From: an uncultured Planctomycetota bacterium
GTDB taxonomy: Bacteria; Planctomycetota; Planctomycetia; Gemmatales; Gemmataceae
Direction of reading: 5' to 3'
Length of the DNA stretch: 64,000 bases
NCBI GenBank assembly: GCA_963784995.1
Contig: CAWATZ010000006.1
Span: 264,853 to 328,852 of the forward strand
The notes under the pieces were generated by a model. That model ran no database searches. It worked only from the letters and a program-made list of their open reading frames with translations, and had not been told where the DNA came from. How positions within the stretch are numbered: position 1 is the stretch's first letter; every line of letters starts with the position of its first letter. Shown here in pieces: positions 13,232 to 24,176 of the stretch. A program made the translations under genes and the position numbers.

Positions 13232-13514
13232 CGTTGTGGAACCTCCAGGTCAGGCGAGCGCGGTTGGTGCGGCACGTGTTCCCCGCCACACAATGATGGC
13301 TCGTCGCGCACTCCGAGTCGCCCGAGTAAAGGATACTGTCGTGCCAGAAATGTTGCAGCACCGGGTTGGGCGATCGCACCTGGGCTGCCCTTCCCAAGGA
13401 GGCTGCGTTGTCCTGGGGCTTTCGTTCCAGGGAAGATACTGCTGGCAGAACAGCAGGTCCTGTCAACCCGCTCCGCGGATCGCAATACGGCTACATCGGC
13501 GACCTCGTGTCGCA

Positions 13515-13610
13515 CCCGAACGCCGAAATTCAGCAGCGGCGGCCGCTCCTGAGACCTGGAATTACAGGAGCCATGTTGCGGCCGCCGTCTGCTGAAATGG
13601 TTGGTTCGGC
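13515..13610 (-). other. attC-like recombination site (96 bp) of the cassette carrying the aspartic-protease gene pair
   Basis: Read on the minus strand: GCCGAAC (R'') overlapping the stop codon, imperfect inverted repeat CAGCAGACGGCGGCCGC / GCGGCCGCCGCTGCTGAA, terminal GTTCGGG (R'). Confidence 0.55.
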
Positions 13611-13984
13611 TACCTGTGCCGGAGCCGTTTGATCGTTACTTTGCCGCGGTAACGAACTTGCATCTTCAACTCGTGACCGCGCAACAGCCTCATACCGACC
13701 AGGGGATCGGTGTCTGCTTCATCGACCAGAATTTGACGTACTTTGCTGTCCCAGACCACTTTACCCACGTACACCCGGAAAACGCAGGTGCTGCCGTCGG
13801 CCAGTGTTGCCCGTTGCGTGCTTTGCCAGCGCAGGCCCAAGAGCGTAATCAGAGCCGGCGGTAAGGTGAGCGCTCCGGTATATCCCGAGTCAATGACCGC
13901 TTCAATCTCTTGCTCGCGGCCCTTGCGACCTCGAACTGTCAAGCGAATACGGGCTTCGTCGGCCTTGACCGCGCCAGTAATCAT
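13610..13984 (-). CDS. Retropepsin-like (clan AA) aspartic protease, ~124 aa (DSGYTG active-site-like motif)
   Basis: Motif ...VIDSGYTGALTLP... Overlaps the upstream partner gene by 4 bp. Confidence 0.65.
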   Translation of the reverse strand: MITGAVKADEARIRLTVRGRKGREQEIEAVIDSGYTGALTLPPALITLLGLRWQSTQRATLADGSTCVFRVYVGKVVWDSKVRQILVDEADTDPLVGMRLLRGHELKMQVRYRGKVTIKRLRHR

Positions 13985-14259
13985 GGCAAGTCCTGGCGTA
14001 GTTGTCGCCCGCCGAATCTTCGCGTCGAGCGAGAGCCGATGCGCACCATCCAGATTTGTGCCTCGGGCAGGCGACGCCGCAGTTTGTTGCCTGCCTTCAT
14101 CTCATCGGCAGCAATTTCGTACTGACCCGTTTCTATGTCGATGGCGAGAAACTTGCCTGTGTCTTGGGCCGTCAGCTTGGGAAGAATCTCCTTTTCGTAG
14201 ATGGCATCGCCACGCCTCGCGAATTCTTCTTTGCTGTAGCGCGGTTGTAAGGTTGCCAT
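13981..14259 (-). CDS. Small partner protein (92 aa, DUF5678-like?) co-transcribed with the clan AA aspartic protease
   Basis: 4-bp overlap (translational coupling). ...KFLAIDIETGQYEIAADE... No confident family assignment. Confidence 0.55.
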   Translation of the reverse strand: MATLQPRYSKEEFARRGDAIYEKEILPKLTAQDTGKFLAIDIETGQYEIAADEMKAGNKLRRRLPEAQIWMVRIGSRSTRRFGGRQLRQDLP

Positions 14260-14898: not shown

Positions 14899-14997
14899 TG
14901 CGAACGAAAAGGATAAGCTGCCGGGGCCGCCTGCAAGACCTCCATGCCGCGCGAAACCAGGATGGCGGCCCCGGTCAGCTTCATCCGGTGGTTCGGC
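14899..14997 (-). other. attC-like recombination site (99 bp) downstream of the lipoprotein cassette gene
   Basis: Minus strand: GCCGAAC ... inverted repeat GCTGACCGGGGCCGCC / GGCGGCCCCGGCAGC ... GTTCGCA. Same architecture as 13515-13610 and 15684-15782. Confidence 0.45.
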
Positions 14998-15040
14998 GGC
15001 CTGCCACCCTGTGTTGGCCCAAGCCGGAATTGCCCCCTGG

Positions 15041-15683: not shown

Positions 15684-15782
15684 GTCGAACGCCCCGCTCA
15701 GCAGCCGGCTCACGCGGGCCAGACAGCGAAGCTCGACAAGACTCACTCGCGTGGCCGGTCTGCTGCAGCTTTTGGTTCGGCG
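15684..15782 (-). other. attC-like recombination site (99 bp) 8 nt downstream of the stop of ORF 15791..16348
   Basis: + strand: GTCGAACGCC-ccg-CTCAGCAGCCGGCTCACGCG ... CGCGTGGCCGGTCTGCTGCAGC-TTTTGGTTCGGC. Nearly identical ends to site 13515-13610 (GAACGCC...CAGCAGC / TCTGCTG...TTGGTTCGGC). Confidence 0.55.
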
Positions 15783-15790
15783 TTCCTTTG

Positions 15791-16348
<558 letters not shown>

Positions 16349-17048
16349 CCACGCTACTCCAAGAGGGCAGACCAGACGAGAGGTCTTTGTGTCTCAGGGA
16401 CGCACCAAGGTAGCCGCATTACGCGGCCCTCGACATCTGCATTTCCCTGTGAGGTCTGTTGGCTCTTGTTTGGAGATAACGGCGGGCAGTCCATTCGCCA
16501 TCCGCTCCGTTACGTCGTTGTTGTCACCCTGGCGGACCTTCACCCTGTCTGACCCATTACAGCTCAGCGTTCGGCTACTACGCCGCCTCCGCCATCCTGC
16601 CCGCTCGCTGGCATTGTCGCGTCTGTTGGCCCGGTTGGACTCCAGGTACAGATGCAGCGGTTTAGGATTTCCCACCTTCCGTAAGCACAGACTGTAGAAC
16701 CCTTAGCTGCCTGCTCCACGCCGGGTGGCTGGGTGACAACACGTTTGGCGTTCGGAAACCAAACGTCCCTCCACCATACCTTTTGGTCCAGGTGATGCAG
16801 CCGTTGCACCTGTTATCACTTACGACGCTCACTCGCAGGTTTCTCGCGTCAGCATCGGTTCAGGGTTCGACACGCAGCCACTTTCGGCTGGCAGCCGGTG
16901 TTCTTTGTCAGCAGGCTTCCCACCTTACCCTTTGCCAAAGGGGAACGCAGGCTGCTCAACCCTTACACCGTTGTCATGGTATAGCTCCTTCAGAGCAATC
17001 TGTACATACGTTAAGTGGCGCACCCGAACTTGTGATTAGGCTGACCGG

Positions 17049-17206
17049 CCGGTCAGCATATTTCTCCCGGTCAGCATATTTCGCCTGGTCTCGCTATCAA
17101 GGCTCCGGTCAGCCTATTTCCGCTTCCCGGTCCGCCTAGCAAGGCGTCGGTCAGCCTATTTCCAGCTGCCCGGTCAGCGTATTTTTCCCCGGTCAGCCTA
17201 TCACGG
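17049..17206. repeat. Array of seven direct repeats CCGGTCAGC[A/C]TATTTC (16-18 bp, spacing 0-22 bp), preceded by perfect palindrome CTGACCGGCCGGTCAG (17041-17056), about 120 bp upstream of intI
   Basis: Units at 17049, 17067, 17105, 17127, 17147, 17170 and 17189. Non-coding. Could be IntI accessory sites in attI or regulator binding sites. Confidence 0.6.
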
Positions 17207-17242: not shown

Positions 17243-17272
17243 TTGACATCGTGACAGAGAAAAGTTAATGAT
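17243..17272 (+). promoter_or_regulatory. Sigma70-like promoter (TTGACA-N18-TAATGA) for intI in an AT-rich island
   Basis: TTGACA at 17243-17248, TAATGA at 17267-17272. The only AT-rich stretch in the region. RBS AGGAGG at 17312-17317. Confidence 0.35.
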
Positions 17273-17276
17273 CTCG

Positions 17277-17291
17277 TGTTCATATTGAACA
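17277..17291. promoter_or_regulatory. Perfect 15-bp palindrome TGTTCAtatTGAACA between the -10 element and the intI RBS; candidate operator (LexA-type?)
   Basis: Perfect 6-3-6 palindrome overlapping the predicted transcription start. I recall integron integrases being commonly SOS-regulated. Confidence 0.35.
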
Positions 17292-17323
17292 AAGAGTCAC
17301 ATTCCCTGTTCAGGAGGAAAGCC

Positions 17324-18142
17324 ATGTCTGATGATCGCGGTCCGTCCCCAGAGTCGTCCGCCCAGCCATCGCCGCCGCGCTTGCTCGACCAGTTGTGTCA
17401 AGTCGCACGGAAGCGTGGCCATGCCGAATGGACTGTGGCCGACTACGTCAAGTGGGTCCGCCGCCTGGTCCGCTTCCACGGCCAGCGCCATCCCCGGGAG
17501 CTGGGTCTTGCGGAAGTGTCCCAGTTCCTGGAGTCGGTTGCCCAGACGGAGAAAAACCCAGTCCGGGCCATCGCCGCCAGCCGGGAGGCCCTCGATTTCC
17601 TGTATCGCGAGGTGCTGTGCCTGGACCTGGGAGAGCTGCCCTGGCCGAGGCCGCCCCGGCTGCTCGACCAGGTCCGCCAGGTGCTGCGCGTCCGCCACTA
17701 TGCCCGCCGTACCGAGGACTGTTACCTCGGCTGGATCCTCCGCTTCATCTTCTTTCACAAGAAACGTCACCCCCGCGACATGGGCGCTGCCGAGGTGGAG
17801 CAGTTCCTCACCGACCTGGCGGTCCGCGGCCACGTCTCGGCCAGCACGCAAAACCAGGCGCTGAACGCCCTGGTGTTCCTGTATCAGCAAGTATTGGAGA
17901 TCGACCTGGGCCGGCTGGACGCGGTGCGGGCGCGGCGGCCGAAACGGCTGCCCGTGGTGCTGGCTCCCGAGGAAGTCGCGGCGGTGCTGCAACGCATCGA
18001 GGGAGGGGACGGCGTCTTCCAGTTGATGGCCCGGCTGCTCTACGGCTGCGGTCTGCGGCTGCTGGAATGCTGTCAGCTGCGTGTCAAGGACGTCCAGCTG
18101 GCCCGTGGGCAGATCGTCGTGCGCGGCGGCAAGGGGAACAAG
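17324..18142 (+). pseudogene. intI: Integron integrase intI remnant: IntI1-like N-terminal half with a tandemly duplicated, diverged N-terminal domain, truncated after GKGNK (no catalytic R-H-R-Y domain)
   Basis: ...HYARRTEDCYLGWILRFIFFHKKRHPRDMGAAEVEQFLTDLA...VSASTQNQALNALVFLYQQVL...RRLPVVLAPEEVAAVLQRIEGGDGVFQLMARLLYGCGLRLLECCQLRVKDVQLARGQIVVRGGKGNK aligns closely with IntI1 residues ~20-175. No frame downstream encodes a tyrosine-recombinase catalytic domain. Confidence 0.8.
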
Positions 18143-18228
18143 GAAGTAGCTGCCGTTGGGCAGGGTGCAACAGGAACAAGACCCAGGGATGGTAGCCGGG
18201 CACCGTCTGCCTGCCCGACAGCTCCTGG

Positions 18229-18305
18229 TCGTTGCAGCGTTGCAGTCCTTGCACGCATTGCACTGCAATGCAGGGCGGCTGGGCTGGCTGCAACGCTGCA
18301 ACGAC
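18229..18305. repeat. Inverted repeat (17-bp perfect arms TCGTTGCAGCGTTGCAG / CTGCAACGCTGCAACGA with an internally palindromic 43-nt loop) just downstream of the intI truncation point
   Basis: Left arm 18229-18245, right arm 18289-18305. Lies between convergent intI remnant and pentapeptide gene. Confidence 0.5.
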
Positions 18306-18517
18306 GCCTGGTTGCCCCTCGGAACCAGCGCAGCAAGCACCTCGAAGTGTCAAGTGGTCGCCCGCCCCAATCGTCCCGGAGGAGACCAAGCCGGAGGGGA
18401 GCCAGCGTGCCATCTCGCTGTGTGTGTGCCGCAGCGCCATGCAATCCATCCGCGCTCTGGCTTCCCTCCTTGCTTGTGCCGTCCGGGGTGTGGAACACGG
18501 CGCACCCCGGACGGCCC

Positions 18518-19825
18518 TTACCGAATCACCTTCCGGCTGAAGGCGACGATGAACAGGCCCCAGAGCAGGGTGCCCAGCAGCGATTCCACGATCAGCGGCA
18601 CGTTCATCCAGTCCTTGGCCATGTCGCTGACGCTGCTCAATCCCGACGTGAACACCGCCACGCTCTTGAACAGCCCGATCAGGATGCGGTTGTTCAGCTG
18701 CGTCTTCTCCGGGCCAAAGGGCAGCTTGTCCGGCTCGATCGTGAAGCAATCGATGCCCACGGCATAAATCGCGGCGAACACGACAATGATCAGCACGGCC
18801 GCCCGCACCGCCCGGAAGGGGTTGGTGCAGTAGCCGCAGCCGTGGTCCAGCAGCAACCAGTCGGCGAACTGGCCCAGCTTGGTCCAGGGACGCAGCCAGG
18901 AACGCCGGCTGCCGCGGCGCTGGTTGACCTTGAAGCGATAGAACGCCCAGTCCTCCTGCTCGTAGCGGTGCAGGTTCTCGAAGACCCGCTTTAAGAATGC
19001 GTACTCGTGCATCGCCGTCTCGTAGTCGCCCTTCTCCTCGCTGGCCAGCCGGCCCTGGATTTGCTCCGGATTGATGCGCAGCCGATCGCCGATGACGTTG
19101 CTGAAGGCGAACTGCTGCTTCGGCCCCTGCTGGATCGACTCCAGGTAGGTGTAGTCGTTCAGCTTGGCCTTGCTCAGATCGAGCAAGCCCTCGAAGCGCG
19201 AGGTGGTGAAGTCCAGCTTCTTGGCCACCGCCGAGCCGCGCATCAGGAAGTGGCCGTTGAAGACGCACCCCTGCAGTACGAAGCCCTCCTCGGCGTGGAA
19301 ACTGCGGAAGTCCACGTCGATCAGGAACCGGCAATCCTTGAAGTCCACCCAGCCCTCGAAGCGCGTCTCCCACAGCCGGACCGTTCCCTCAAAGGTCGAG
19401 GCGCCAACGACGAACTTGCCCTTGCAGGTCGCGTTCTCCAGGTTGAAGCCCTCCTTGACCTTGAAGCGATAAAACTGCGCCCGGATCAGCGTCGAGCCGG
19501 ACAGGATGAGCCCCTTGCGGAACTCATTGTCCTTGTTGGACTCCGGCCGCTCGATCGTGCAGGCGGTCATCTTGACTTCGTCCTGGAAGATGACGCCGTC
19601 AAACCGAGGCCGAACCAGGATACAGTGCCGCAGGCGAACTGGGGCGGTGAACTCGCCCCGGAAGACCAGCCGCTCCACGCGAACGTTCTCCAGCGTCTCG
19701 CCCTTGCGGAGGCGTTCCAGCGCCTCCTTGGCCGACATTTCGGTCCGCGCAGCGCCCTCCGGGGCTTCCGGCTGCAGAGTCGTTGTTCCCTCGAAATCGT
19801 CGCTGTCCGATTCGGGCAAGCTCAT
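18518..19825 (-). CDS. Pentapeptide-repeat protein fused to a C-terminal two-TM ion-channel-like domain
   Basis: Tandem A(D/N)LxX-type pentapeptide repeats. C-terminal hydrophobic helices with a pore-like segment. Confidence 0.65.
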   Translation of the reverse strand: MSLPESDSDDFEGTTTLQPEAPEGAARTEMSAKEALERLRKGETLENVRVERLVFRGEFTAPVRLRHCILVRPRFDGVIFQDEVKMTACTIERPESNKDNEFRKGLILSGSTLIRAQFYRFKVKEGFNLENATCKGKFVVGASTFEGTVRLWETRFEGWVDFKDCRFLIDVDFRSFHAEEGFVLQGCVFNGHFLMRGSAVAKKLDFTTSRFEGLLDLSKAKLNDYTYLESIQQGPKQQFAFSNVIGDRLRINPEQIQGRLASEEKGDYETAMHEYAFLKRVFENLHRYEQEDWAFYRFKVNQRRGSRRSWLRPWTKLGQFADWLLLDHGCGYCTNPFRAVRAAVLIIVVFAAIYAVGIDCFTIEPDKLPFGPEKTQLNNRILIGLFKSVAVFTSGLSSVSDMAKDWMNVPLIVESLLGTLLWGLFIVAFSRKVIR

Positions 19826-23126: not shown

Positions 23127-24062
23127 TCAACCCTGCTCGGTCCCTCGCGGATGGAAGCGCTGGTGAATGGCCTTGAGCCGGTCGCGGTCCACGTGGGTGT
23201 AGCGCTGGGTGGTCTGGATGCTGCTGTGGCCGAGCAGCTCCTGGACGGTGCGCAGGTCGGCGCCGCCGGCCAGCAGGTGCGTGGCGAAGCTGTGTCGCAG
23301 CGTGTGCGGACTGACGCGGGCGTTCAGGCCGGTGCGGCGGACGTACTTCTTGACCACCACCCAGAGCATCTCGCGCGTCAGTTGCCGGCCGCCCCGGCTG
23401 ACGAAGACCCATTCCGTCTCGGGTGCGGTCTGGACCAGCGAGGGCCGTTGCTGTTCCAGGTAGGTGCGCAGGGCGTGGATGGCGGGCTTACCGATCGGCA
23501 CGATGCGCTGCTTGCTGCCCTTGCCGAAGCATTTGAGGAAGGACGAGTCCAGATGCAGGTCGGTCAGCTTGAGCCCGACCACCTCCGAGGCCCGCGCGCC
23601 GGTGGCGTACAGCGTCTCCAGGATGGCCCGGTCGCGCAGGTAAAAGCGATCCTGCGACAGGGGGGCTTCCAGCAGCCGGGTCACCGCCTCCGGGCTGAGC
23701 ACCTGCGGAATGCGGGCCCACAGGCTCGGGGAGCTGAGCAGATCGACCGTGCCGGTGGTGGTGCGCTCCTCCAGGCGCAGGAAGCGGTAGAACATCTTGA
23801 GCGAGACCAGGTGCCGGGCCTGGCTGGCCGGCGCCAGCCCTTCGGTGCGGAGGAACTCGACGTAGTCGGTCAGCTCGCGGAGGTTGGGCAGCAGGTAATT
23901 GGCAACGCCGCCGCCGGCCACCCAGTGGAGGAACCGATCCAGGTCGCGCGTGTAGGCCAGGTAGGTGTTGTTCGCCAGGCCGCGCTCGCCCTGGACGTAG
24001 TGGCGAAAGGCCTGGATGTCGTCGTTGAGAGCGGTAAAGCGGGCGGTCTCGTCGGTGGGCAT
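23127..24062 (-). CDS. xerD: Tyrosine recombinase XerC/XerD family
   Basis: Full catalytic domain ...ARASEVVGLKLTDL...GKGSKQRIVP...HTLRHSFATHLLAGGADLRTVQELLGHSSIQTTQRYTHV. Confidence 0.85.
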   Translation of the reverse strand: MPTDETARFTALNDDIQAFRHYVQGERGLANNTYLAYTRDLDRFLHWVAGGGVANYLLPNLRELTDYVEFLRTEGLAPASQARHLVSLKMFYRFLRLEERTTTGTVDLLSSPSLWARIPQVLSPEAVTRLLEAPLSQDRFYLRDRAILETLYATGARASEVVGLKLTDLHLDSSFLKCFGKGSKQRIVPIGKPAIHALRTYLEQQRPSLVQTAPETEWVFVSRGGRQLTREMLWVVVKKYVRRTGLNARVSPHTLRHSFATHLLAGGADLRTVQELLGHSSIQTTQRYTHVDRDRLKAIHQRFHPRGTEQG

Positions 24063-24080
24063 GGGGCCTCCCGCATCATG

Positions 24081-24176
24081 CTCCCCTCTCCCCTTGTGGG
24101 AGAGGGGTTGGGGGTGAGGGGCTTTTTCCGATTTATCGTTTCGCGCTCGCTAACCCAGCGCGAAACGATAAATCAA
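24081..24176. repeat. REP-like composite palindromic element copy 1: CCCCTCTCCCC-N4-GGGAGAGGGG hairpin, TTGGGGGTGAGGGG, and GATTTATCGTTTCGCGCT-loop-AGCGCGAAACGATAAATC hairpin
   Basis: Same composite element recurs at 44741-44890 and 60010-60106. Confidence 0.7.

Follow-up and report, generated by a model that had tools for sequence, protein, structure and literature searches.

Probable 5′ remnant of a long-form integron integrase gene with two core-binding domains in a planctomycete integron

The Truncated intI Gene

A stretch of 64,000 nt from an uncultured Gemmataceae bacterium of the Planctomycetota (assembly GCA_963784995.1, contig CAWATZ010000006.1, forward-strand positions 264,853–328,852; hereafter the window, to which all coordinates refer) contains an integron, whose integrase gene intI diverges from an adjacent attI site and a cassette array on the opposite strand. 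The recognizable part of intI comprises codons 1–274 (17324–18144, +), starting with the ATG at 17324, and its product is gap-free and collinear with the intact 451-aa integrase P0002, at 90% amino acid identity. Taking together this identity, the Pfam matches and the point at which DNA homology ends, it is very probable that these codons represent the 5′ 60% of a chromosomal intI gene cut by a deletion or another rearrangement at 18144/18145, i.e., that they are a pseudogene of a long-form integron integrase.

Two stretches of PF13495 (Phage_int_SAM_4) were found in the remnant protein by Pfam (E 9e-48). The first corresponds to an extra N-terminal, SAM-like four-helix domain (domain 1, aa ~19–98, 17378–17617, +) and the second, best-matching stretch (aa 113–195) to the canonical SAM-like core-binding domain of IntI (domain 2, aa ~113–191, 17660–17896, +), whose IntI/Xer type was evident from PF13495 and from the alignment of domain 2 with the N-terminal domain of Vibrio cholerae IntIA (VchIntIA). 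They are joined by a Pro-rich linker ending in DLGELPWPRPPR (aa 99–112, 17618–17659, +), equivalent to residues 98–112 without secondary structure in the AlphaFold2 (AF2) model of P0002. An intra-protein comparison showed the two domains to be paralogous, with 37 of 90 residues identical (41%, E 2e-19). In the original prediction, made from the sequence of this locus, the intI remnant had likewise been described as carrying two diverged core-binding domains at its N-terminus, and the hidden Markov model annotation suggested there as a check returned the two PF13495 stretches followed by a partial PF00589 match; its domain borders (residues ~32–125 and ~126–220) were, however, offset relative to those counted from ATG 17324.

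The PF00589 match covers profile positions 3–68 of 172 (aa 213–276) and marks the start of the catalytic domain, of which the first ~60 residues are left (aa ~215–274, 17966–18144, +). Comparison with P0002, P0007 and the VchIntIA structure 2A3V showed that this stump keeps the first catalytic Arg (GLRLLE) and the hairpin Lys in the GKGNK β-hairpin, while the IntI-specific insertion, the H-x-x-R motif, the LLGH motif and the Tyr nucleophile are missing; the R-K-H-R-H/W-Y catalytic set is therefore incomplete in the window copy and complete in its intact relatives. The insertion (...ALERKYPRA...W.F.F....), which in the relatives aligns to 2A3V residues ~200–250, lies beyond the breakpoint and was absent from every frame of the window in tblastn.

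At the DNA level, homology to the metagenomic contig carrying P0002 (L001) runs unbroken from the promoter region (~17215) to ...GGCAAGGGGAACAAGGA (18144) and is then lost. Residues 1–274 of three full-length relatives mapped by tblastn to 17324–18145, whereas residues 275–451, the C-terminal half, had no match anywhere in the 64 kb, in agreement with the predicted absence of the catalytic half downstream; the sole other match, at 23166–23714 (−), belonged to an unrelated Xer-type recombinase. The reading frame, however, does not stop at the break. Codon 274 is GAA, and the open reading frame (ORF; 17276–18994) continues as a read-through tail of 282 codons (18145–18994, +) up to the first in-frame stop at 18992–18994, which gives 556 aa from ATG 17324. 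The abrupt end that had been noticed after GKGNK is consequently real for homology and not for the frame, and the 273-aa product envisaged there does not exist. The tail had no similarity to the intact relatives, either in tblastn or in the DNA alignment to L001, and the protein gave no Pfam match beyond aa 276. In its course the tail passes in antisense through the 3′ part of a convergent pentapeptide-repeat gene (PF13576, 18518–19825, −); this gene does not fill the space of the lost half, as had been thought, but lies 373 nt past the break.

The control region in front of the gene was found as originally described. It consists of a promoter-like site TTGACA-18 nt-AATGAT (17243–17272, +), which scores 10/12 in a consensus scan and has TTGAC at the same place in L001–L026, an operator-like palindrome TGTTCATATTGAACA (17277–17291) between the −10 hexamer and the ribosome-binding site (RBS), and the RBS itself, AGGAGG (17312–17317, +), located 6 nt before the ATG. 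The promoter-like site, the palindrome and the RBS region are all conserved between the window and L001, and the palindrome has a single perfect occurrence in the window. Palindromes of the form TGTWC-N4/5-GWACA are present at the same position in most related loci (L001–L052). The window palindrome is similar to the LexA box of Verrucomicrobia, TGTTC-N4-GAACA (PMC4951493), but has a 5-nt spacer; its position and form suggest that these planctomycete intI genes may be under SOS control.

The Long-Form Integrase Family

Thousands of proteins were matched with the 273-aa query, and the figures given here refer to the best 120, which were 62–93% identical to it over 81–100% of its length. At least 74 of them were 440–480 aa long and many were labeled as integron integrase. 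Source names are few among these 120 and include Gemmataceae and Planctomycetaceae; the genome loci of the relatives came from metagenome-assembled genomes (MAGs) of Gemmatales/Gemmataceae, proteins also came from soil, peat and hot-spring metagenomes, and a few double-domain relatives carried the labels of Acidobacteria or Micavibrio MAGs. These proteins form a clade of IntI of ~445–480 aa, represented in the present set mainly by Gemmatales/Gemmataceae (Planctomycetota). Its members have a canonical IntI preceded by the SAM-like domain 1 on a Pro-rich tether. The remnant shares this layout with two PF13495 stretches. Intact double-domain relatives of 445–480 aa, drawn from numerous independent assemblies, were 65–93% identical to it over residues 1–273, and the tandem N-terminal domain, which had seemed a peculiarity of the locus, is clade-wide; instead of the single-N-domain intI considered earlier as a possible counterpart in related genomes, the related loci carry full-length genes with both domains.

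Every catalytic residue and the IntI-specific insertion could be aligned in 60 intact members. A profile built from them matched V. cholerae IntIA (2A3V, 320 aa) with an E of 6e-99 at profile positions 115–428 only, which means that the counterpart of canonical IntI is domain 2 together with the catalytic domain, the first ~114 residues being extra. Domain 2 aligned with residues 6–~90 of 2A3V, which was also the top fold match of the P0002 model (44% identity). The model contains two parallel four-helix bundles with the unstructured Pro-rich linker between them: the helices of domain 1 occupy residues 20–30, 35–51, 62–75 and 79–97, with a predicted local distance difference test (pLDDT) score of ~90, and those of domain 2 residues 113–123, 128–144, 155–167 and 173–190. 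The linker motif G-E-L-P-x-P-x-P-P-R was nearly invariant in the 60 intact relatives; P0182 and P0190, two distant relatives that also have both domains, carry low-complexity linkers of ~50 aa in its place. In P0182, domain 1 seems to resemble a domain 2 more closely.

When domain 1 by itself was used in an exhaustive search, 551 cluster representatives were retrieved at E≤1e-10, the top ones mostly with two matched stretches, and the two-domain design was retained in the distant members sampled. Purifying selection acts on domain 1 of the intact genes (ratio of non-synonymous to synonymous substitution rates, dN/dS, 0.18–0.29), although its protein sequence changes 2–3 times faster than that of domain 2. 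Plasmid matches to the window query in tblastn were single-domain only, with both query domains falling onto the same ~500 nt, and there was no mobile long-form integron among the top plasmid matches listed; the plasmid-borne IntI1 was 44% identical over the shared part. One relative, the 337-aa fragment P0122, has three SAM-like copies in succession and a frameshifted tail, the middle copy resembling domain 2 at its start and domain 1 at its end; it could have originated from unequal recombination between the repeats or be an assembly chimera. Literature searches retrieved no description of a duplicated N-terminal domain in IntI, and to our knowledge and according to these searches the long-form variant has not been characterized previously.

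The attI Site, Its Iterated Units and the Cassettes

The attI core of the window reads on the cassette strand CTAATCACAA followed by GTTCGG (17024–17039, −), with the GTT crossover triplet at 17029–17027. Twelve related loci have the motif (Y)AAC-TGGTGATTAG in common, while past AAC each has a sequence of its own; such a conserved core with a variable cassette side is the signature of an attI crossover point. In the related loci the core on the cassette strand can be written as CTAATCACCA followed by GTTRRRY.

Next to the core, at 17037–17200, is an array of iterated 12-nt units: one inverted unit (TAGGCTGACCGG, 17037–17048) and about eight direct units CCGGTCAGCNTA, starting at 17049, 17067, 17085 (degenerate), 17105, 17127, 17147, 17170 and 17189, with a spacing of 18–23 nt. 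Against 0.95 expected unit matches the window contained nine, eight of which were within 17037–17200. We propose to define such an array by one inverted and at least three direct 12-nt units with a ~20-nt period between the core and the intI promoter, a layout that the window locus shows. Of the 15 distinct double-domain loci with enough upstream DNA, 13 had an inverted unit and 3–9 direct units with a ~20-nt period. No such array was present in any of the 16 single-domain loci, which are ~55% identical in the shared part; the two double-domain exceptions were a frameshifted and a truncated pseudogene. The arrays are located 130–320 nt before the start codon. Their unit sequence is specific to sublineages (CCGGTCAGCATA, CCGGTCTGTCTAT, GCCGGCACAGTAT, CAAGTCGCTATGC), while the ~20-nt period, the placement and the attI core remain constant, and this combination of variable units with a constant core parallels that of a fast-evolving domain 1 with a conserved domain 2. 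On the cassette strand the units read as the −10-like TATGCT, and a promoter-like sequence TTGATA-16-TATGCT is present inside the array (17100–17073, −); occupancy of the units could therefore affect transcription of the cassettes.

Three imperfect attC hairpins, each with one bulged base and CGAAC/GTTCG ends, were recognized on the minus strand. The first (15685–15790) follows the first cassette ORF (~16227–15791) and has a DNA folding energy of −29.9 kcal/mol (z −3.4). The second (14905–15012, z −2.6) follows a lipoprotein-like ORF without a Pfam match (15658–15041) and has CCGAACC...GCTG(A)CC / ...CGTTCG in common with the other attCs. The third (13510–13612; −32.1 kcal/mol, z −5.9) follows a cassette with two genes (14259–13981 and 13984–13610). 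This two-gene cassette (13610–14259, −) consists of a 92-aa ORF overlapping a 124-aa ORF, of which the latter is weakly retropepsin-like (PF13975, E 2e-4), and may represent a toxin-antitoxin-like pair; such pairs are frequent in chromosomal integrons. The guanine-plus-cytosine (GC) content falls to 0.57–0.61 over the cassette stretch. Rfam, which has no attC family, detected only a group II intron in the window.

With an attI core, a unit array and at least three attC hairpins, arranged with attC-bounded cassettes next to attI and divergently from intI, the locus can be classified from its sequence features as a genuine integron. What remains of it is a frozen platform that retains its control region, attI core, units and at least three cassettes, and whose integrase product cannot recombine DNA.

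Another decayed remnant was observed in L012 (positions 900–1500) and in L057–L061, comprising a frameshifted domain 1 only and an attI core next to which just one unit (AACTGGTGATTTACACAACCGGCGCCGGCACAGTATCAC) is left; the L012-type remnant was nearly unchanged across several peat metagenome contigs.

Fate of the Truncated Gene

The truncation is most likely recent on the evolutionary scale and the gene dead. Among the 273 retained residues, none deviated at the 94 positions with a conservation of 95% or more across 74 intact relatives, and the window branch had accumulated 23 synonymous and 11 non-synonymous changes compared to 30 and 13, respectively, on the branch of the intact L001 gene. 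Such preservation does not speak for recent truncation alone, since an intact N-terminal part, promoter and RBS fit continued selection equally well. Two further points count against truncation by simple loss: a chimeric assembly at 18144 is possible on the contig sequence alone, and the 3′ half could lie beyond the 64-kb window after an inversion or a very large insertion.

In a rival reading, the truncated gene has been kept for a functional protein which only binds DNA, as was also considered in the original prediction; its two SAM-like domains would still bind the iterated attI units. Such a protein would repress or roadblock the cassette promoter, the intI promoter or attI, or serve as a dominant-negative partner of an integrase acting in trans. 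Besides the 94 unchanged family-invariant positions and the ratio of synonymous to non-synonymous changes (23/11), which equals that of the intact orthologue (30/13), it would have in its favor that the promoter-like site, the operator-like palindrome, the RBS and both N-terminal domains are intact, and that binding to units with a −10-like TATGCT, in an array that includes the promoter-like site at 17100–17073, could alter cassette expression. The structure of the open frame argues against it: as the frame stays open across the break, translation would add 282 unrelated residues encoded antisense through the neighbor gene, and the retained catalytic fragment of ~60 residues would be unable to fold alone. 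The relatives do not support it either. The truncated form is not conserved in related lineages, the short relatives having scattered ends and frameshifted tails: the closest one (P0001, 93% identity) is truncated elsewhere, diverging after residue ~335, P0013 diverges after ~325, the genes in L006, L026 and L028 break off at aa 245, 216 and 197, and P0033 and P0317 are frameshifted. The only clean stop exactly at the domain boundary was found in P0284, where the catalytic part forms the next ORF, but the 89%-identical P0298 reads through this position. A conserved standalone family with two SAM-like domains was therefore rejected, the stop in P0284 being a private nonsense mutation, and N-terminal remnants were found in abundance because the queries were themselves N-terminal, an ascertainment effect. 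Altogether, a DNA-binding-only derivative is quite unlikely and the proposal found no support.

An assembly artefact, either a chimeric join or a collapse at 18144 in a genome with an intact long-form intI, is very unlikely. Many relatives do come from metagenome assemblies, and a 14-nt near-repeat flanks the junction (GCAAGGGGAACAAG at 18129–18142 and GCAACAGGAACAAG at 18167–18180); this repeat is, however, short and imperfect, the GC content is continuous over the join, and the flanking DNA, which holds a convergent gene together with the hairpin of that gene, is of an ordinary chromosomal kind. Moreover, independent truncations of this gene family are common in other assemblies, which makes a real truncation more likely than an artefact. 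The chance that the gene was interrupted rather than deleted, with its 3′ half moved elsewhere in the genome by an inversion or by an insertion of more than 46 kb, is slighter still: integron regions are prone to rearrangement, the N-terminal part is pristine and the examined DNA is limited to 64 kb, but no 3′ half was found within 17 kb upstream or 46 kb downstream, the junction has no transposase, repeat or target-site duplication, and the sequence directly past the break is unique among the window and the related loci compared. A pseudogene left by a real truncation thus remains our preferred explanation, and it is consistent with the share of about one third of pseudogenes among intI genes in surveys (PMC2426708).

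Four other, independent relatives (P0003, P0059, P0285 and P0323) are decayed by in-frame internal deletions that removed the catalytic core and left the N-terminal domains together with a C-terminal tail (...IYTHVARKG... or ...EEV.AA..ATR...). Four in-frame deletions are compatible with chance, by which one deletion in three is in frame.

DNA Beyond the Break

The 373 nt between the break and the pentapeptide-repeat gene were unique among the window and the related loci compared, none of which shared neighbor genes or cassettes with the window. They include a perfect 18-bp inverted repeat GTCGTTGCAGCGTTGCAG with a 42-nt loop (18228–18305; DNA fold z −5.1), which starts 84 nt past the breakpoint, has two GTTGCAG heptads per arm and is present in a single copy across the window and the related loci. 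This hairpin was considered as an attC that might have mediated the deletion and rejected, as it has neither a bulged base nor CGAAC/GTTCG ends and occurs nowhere else. A break at a secondary site (GTT) of the integrase was unconvincing, the nearest AAC being 5 nt before the junction.

At 23166–24100 (−), ~5 kb downstream from the remnant, is a complete tyrosine recombinase of the XerC/D type with the motifs GKGSKQR..., HTLRHSFATHLL and RYTHV. It is ~31% identical to the catalytic domain of integron integrases and presumably represents the housekeeping Xer.

A Group II Intron in attI

The R box of attI is occupied by an ORF-less group II intron of 760 nt (16264–17023, −; GTTCGG^GTGCG...CTAC), identified through domains V–VI by Rfam RF00029 (70 bits); its match to RF02012 (29.6 bits) was below the threshold. 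Its insertion point is 6 nt past the G in the GTT crossover triplet, and its orientation is that of the cassettes. A full-length copy with 86% identity occupies the very same GTTCGG^ site within an attC of L013–L015 (L013, 1528–2280), which belongs to another integron with a long-form intI. In targeting integron recombination sites, attI in the window and attC in L013, this intron lineage resembles the group IIC-attC introns. The known members of that class carry a reverse transcriptase/maturase ORF and are inserted opposite to cassette transcription at TTGT/T in the attC bottom strand (PMC7923331), while the window intron has no ORF, is sense-oriented and uses a GTTCGG^ target, and so does not belong to the class as defined (PMC7923331). 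The sense-oriented, ORF-less intron at GTTCGG^ in both attI and attC provides a second, small lead on the association of introns with integrons.

Proposed Role of Domain 1

The accessory role proposed here for domain 1 derives from the co-occurrence of the unit arrays with two-domain genes. In intact members, domain 1 would be an accessory, arm-type DNA-binding module reading the iterated units, and this reading would lead to assembly of several integrase protomers at attI; domain 1 bound to the units might perhaps also control the cassette promoter that they overlap. The resulting picture, in which domain 1 on 3–9 units builds a lambda-like higher-order intasome at attI and possibly gates the cassette promoter, is tentative, and we consider it possible rather than probable from the sequences at hand. 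As a corollary, the truncated product of the window could still occupy the units. Two considerations weigh against this role: the co-occurrence was observed among related loci that are phylogenetically non-independent, and the units hold an L-box-like core (GCCTAAT) that canonical domains could bind. IntI1, for instance, binds the direct repeats DR1 and DR2 in attI1. In its logic, the proposed role would be analogous to that of the arm-binding domain of lambda Int or of the DR1/DR2 sites. Recognition of attI by an arm-type domain 1 would be a mode not described for integrons.

Comparison With Known Systems

The closest known relatives of the family are VchIntIA/IntI4 (2A3V) and class 1 IntI1. 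Domain 2 and the catalytic domain align end to end with VchIntIA, including the insertion and, in intact members, all catalytic residues. The layout of intI, attI and attC-bounded cassettes with a divergent intI, as well as attC hairpins with bulged bases, are likewise common to canonical integrons and the window family. In contrast to canonical IntI, the long-form family has the extra SAM-like domain of ~95 residues and a Pro-rich linker in front, and the window copy, in addition, has no catalytic half. Canonical attI1 carries two direct repeats, DR1 and DR2; the attI of the family differs from it in having one inverted and 3–9 direct units with a ~20-nt period. As for the remnant itself, inactivated chromosomal integrons, such as those of Xanthomonas, or intI2, similarly combine a truncated intI with a recognizable attI and cassettes, and nothing essential distinguishes the window locus from them, it being a further case in a long-form gene.

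An extra N-terminal DNA-binding module on a tether, used together with accessory sites, is known from the heterobivalent integrases of lambda and Tn916/Tn1549, although the likeness of the long-form IntI to them is only inferred. The arm-binding domain of lambda Int has a three-stranded-sheet fold, whereas the extra domain of the family copies the core-binding SAM-like fold, and its accessory sites, unlike the lambda arm sites, are direct iterations of the unit of which the L side of the core is likewise made.

A single related remark on extended integrases was found in the literature. In the survey by Nemergut et al. (2008; PMC2426708), clade 15 IntI from Deltaproteobacteria are ~120 aa longer owing to a shared "gene fusion"; they were classed there as pseudogenes by length, yet possibly functional since the fusion was group-wide (PMC2426708). 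By its size this extension would fit domain 1 and the linker taken together. The taxonomy differs, with clade 15 being deltaproteobacterial (PMC2426708) and the loci of the window family mostly from Gemmatales/Planctomycetota.

Implications

The remnant by itself adds little, as inactivated integron integrases are common, and most likely it just marks a frozen cassette array. While the remnant is ordinary, the design of its family, with a duplicated core-binding domain and iterated attI units, is moderately interesting as a variant of a known system: it concerns a large and environmentally widespread group of IntI with a second copy of the core-binding domain and long, regular, lineage-specific unit arrays at attI, whereas the IntI of known structure and all plasmid-borne integrases retrieved here, IntI1 included, are short and single-domain. 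Annotation pipelines and surveys that flag IntI more than 20% longer than IntI1 as pseudogenes, as was done in one survey (PMC2426708), would misclassify the entire long-form clade. If the role proposed for domain 1 is true, Planctomycetota and some other soil phyla would recognize attI by a bivalent, lambda-Int-like mechanism, which would have a bearing on the targeting and regulation of cassette insertion outside the clinical integron classes.

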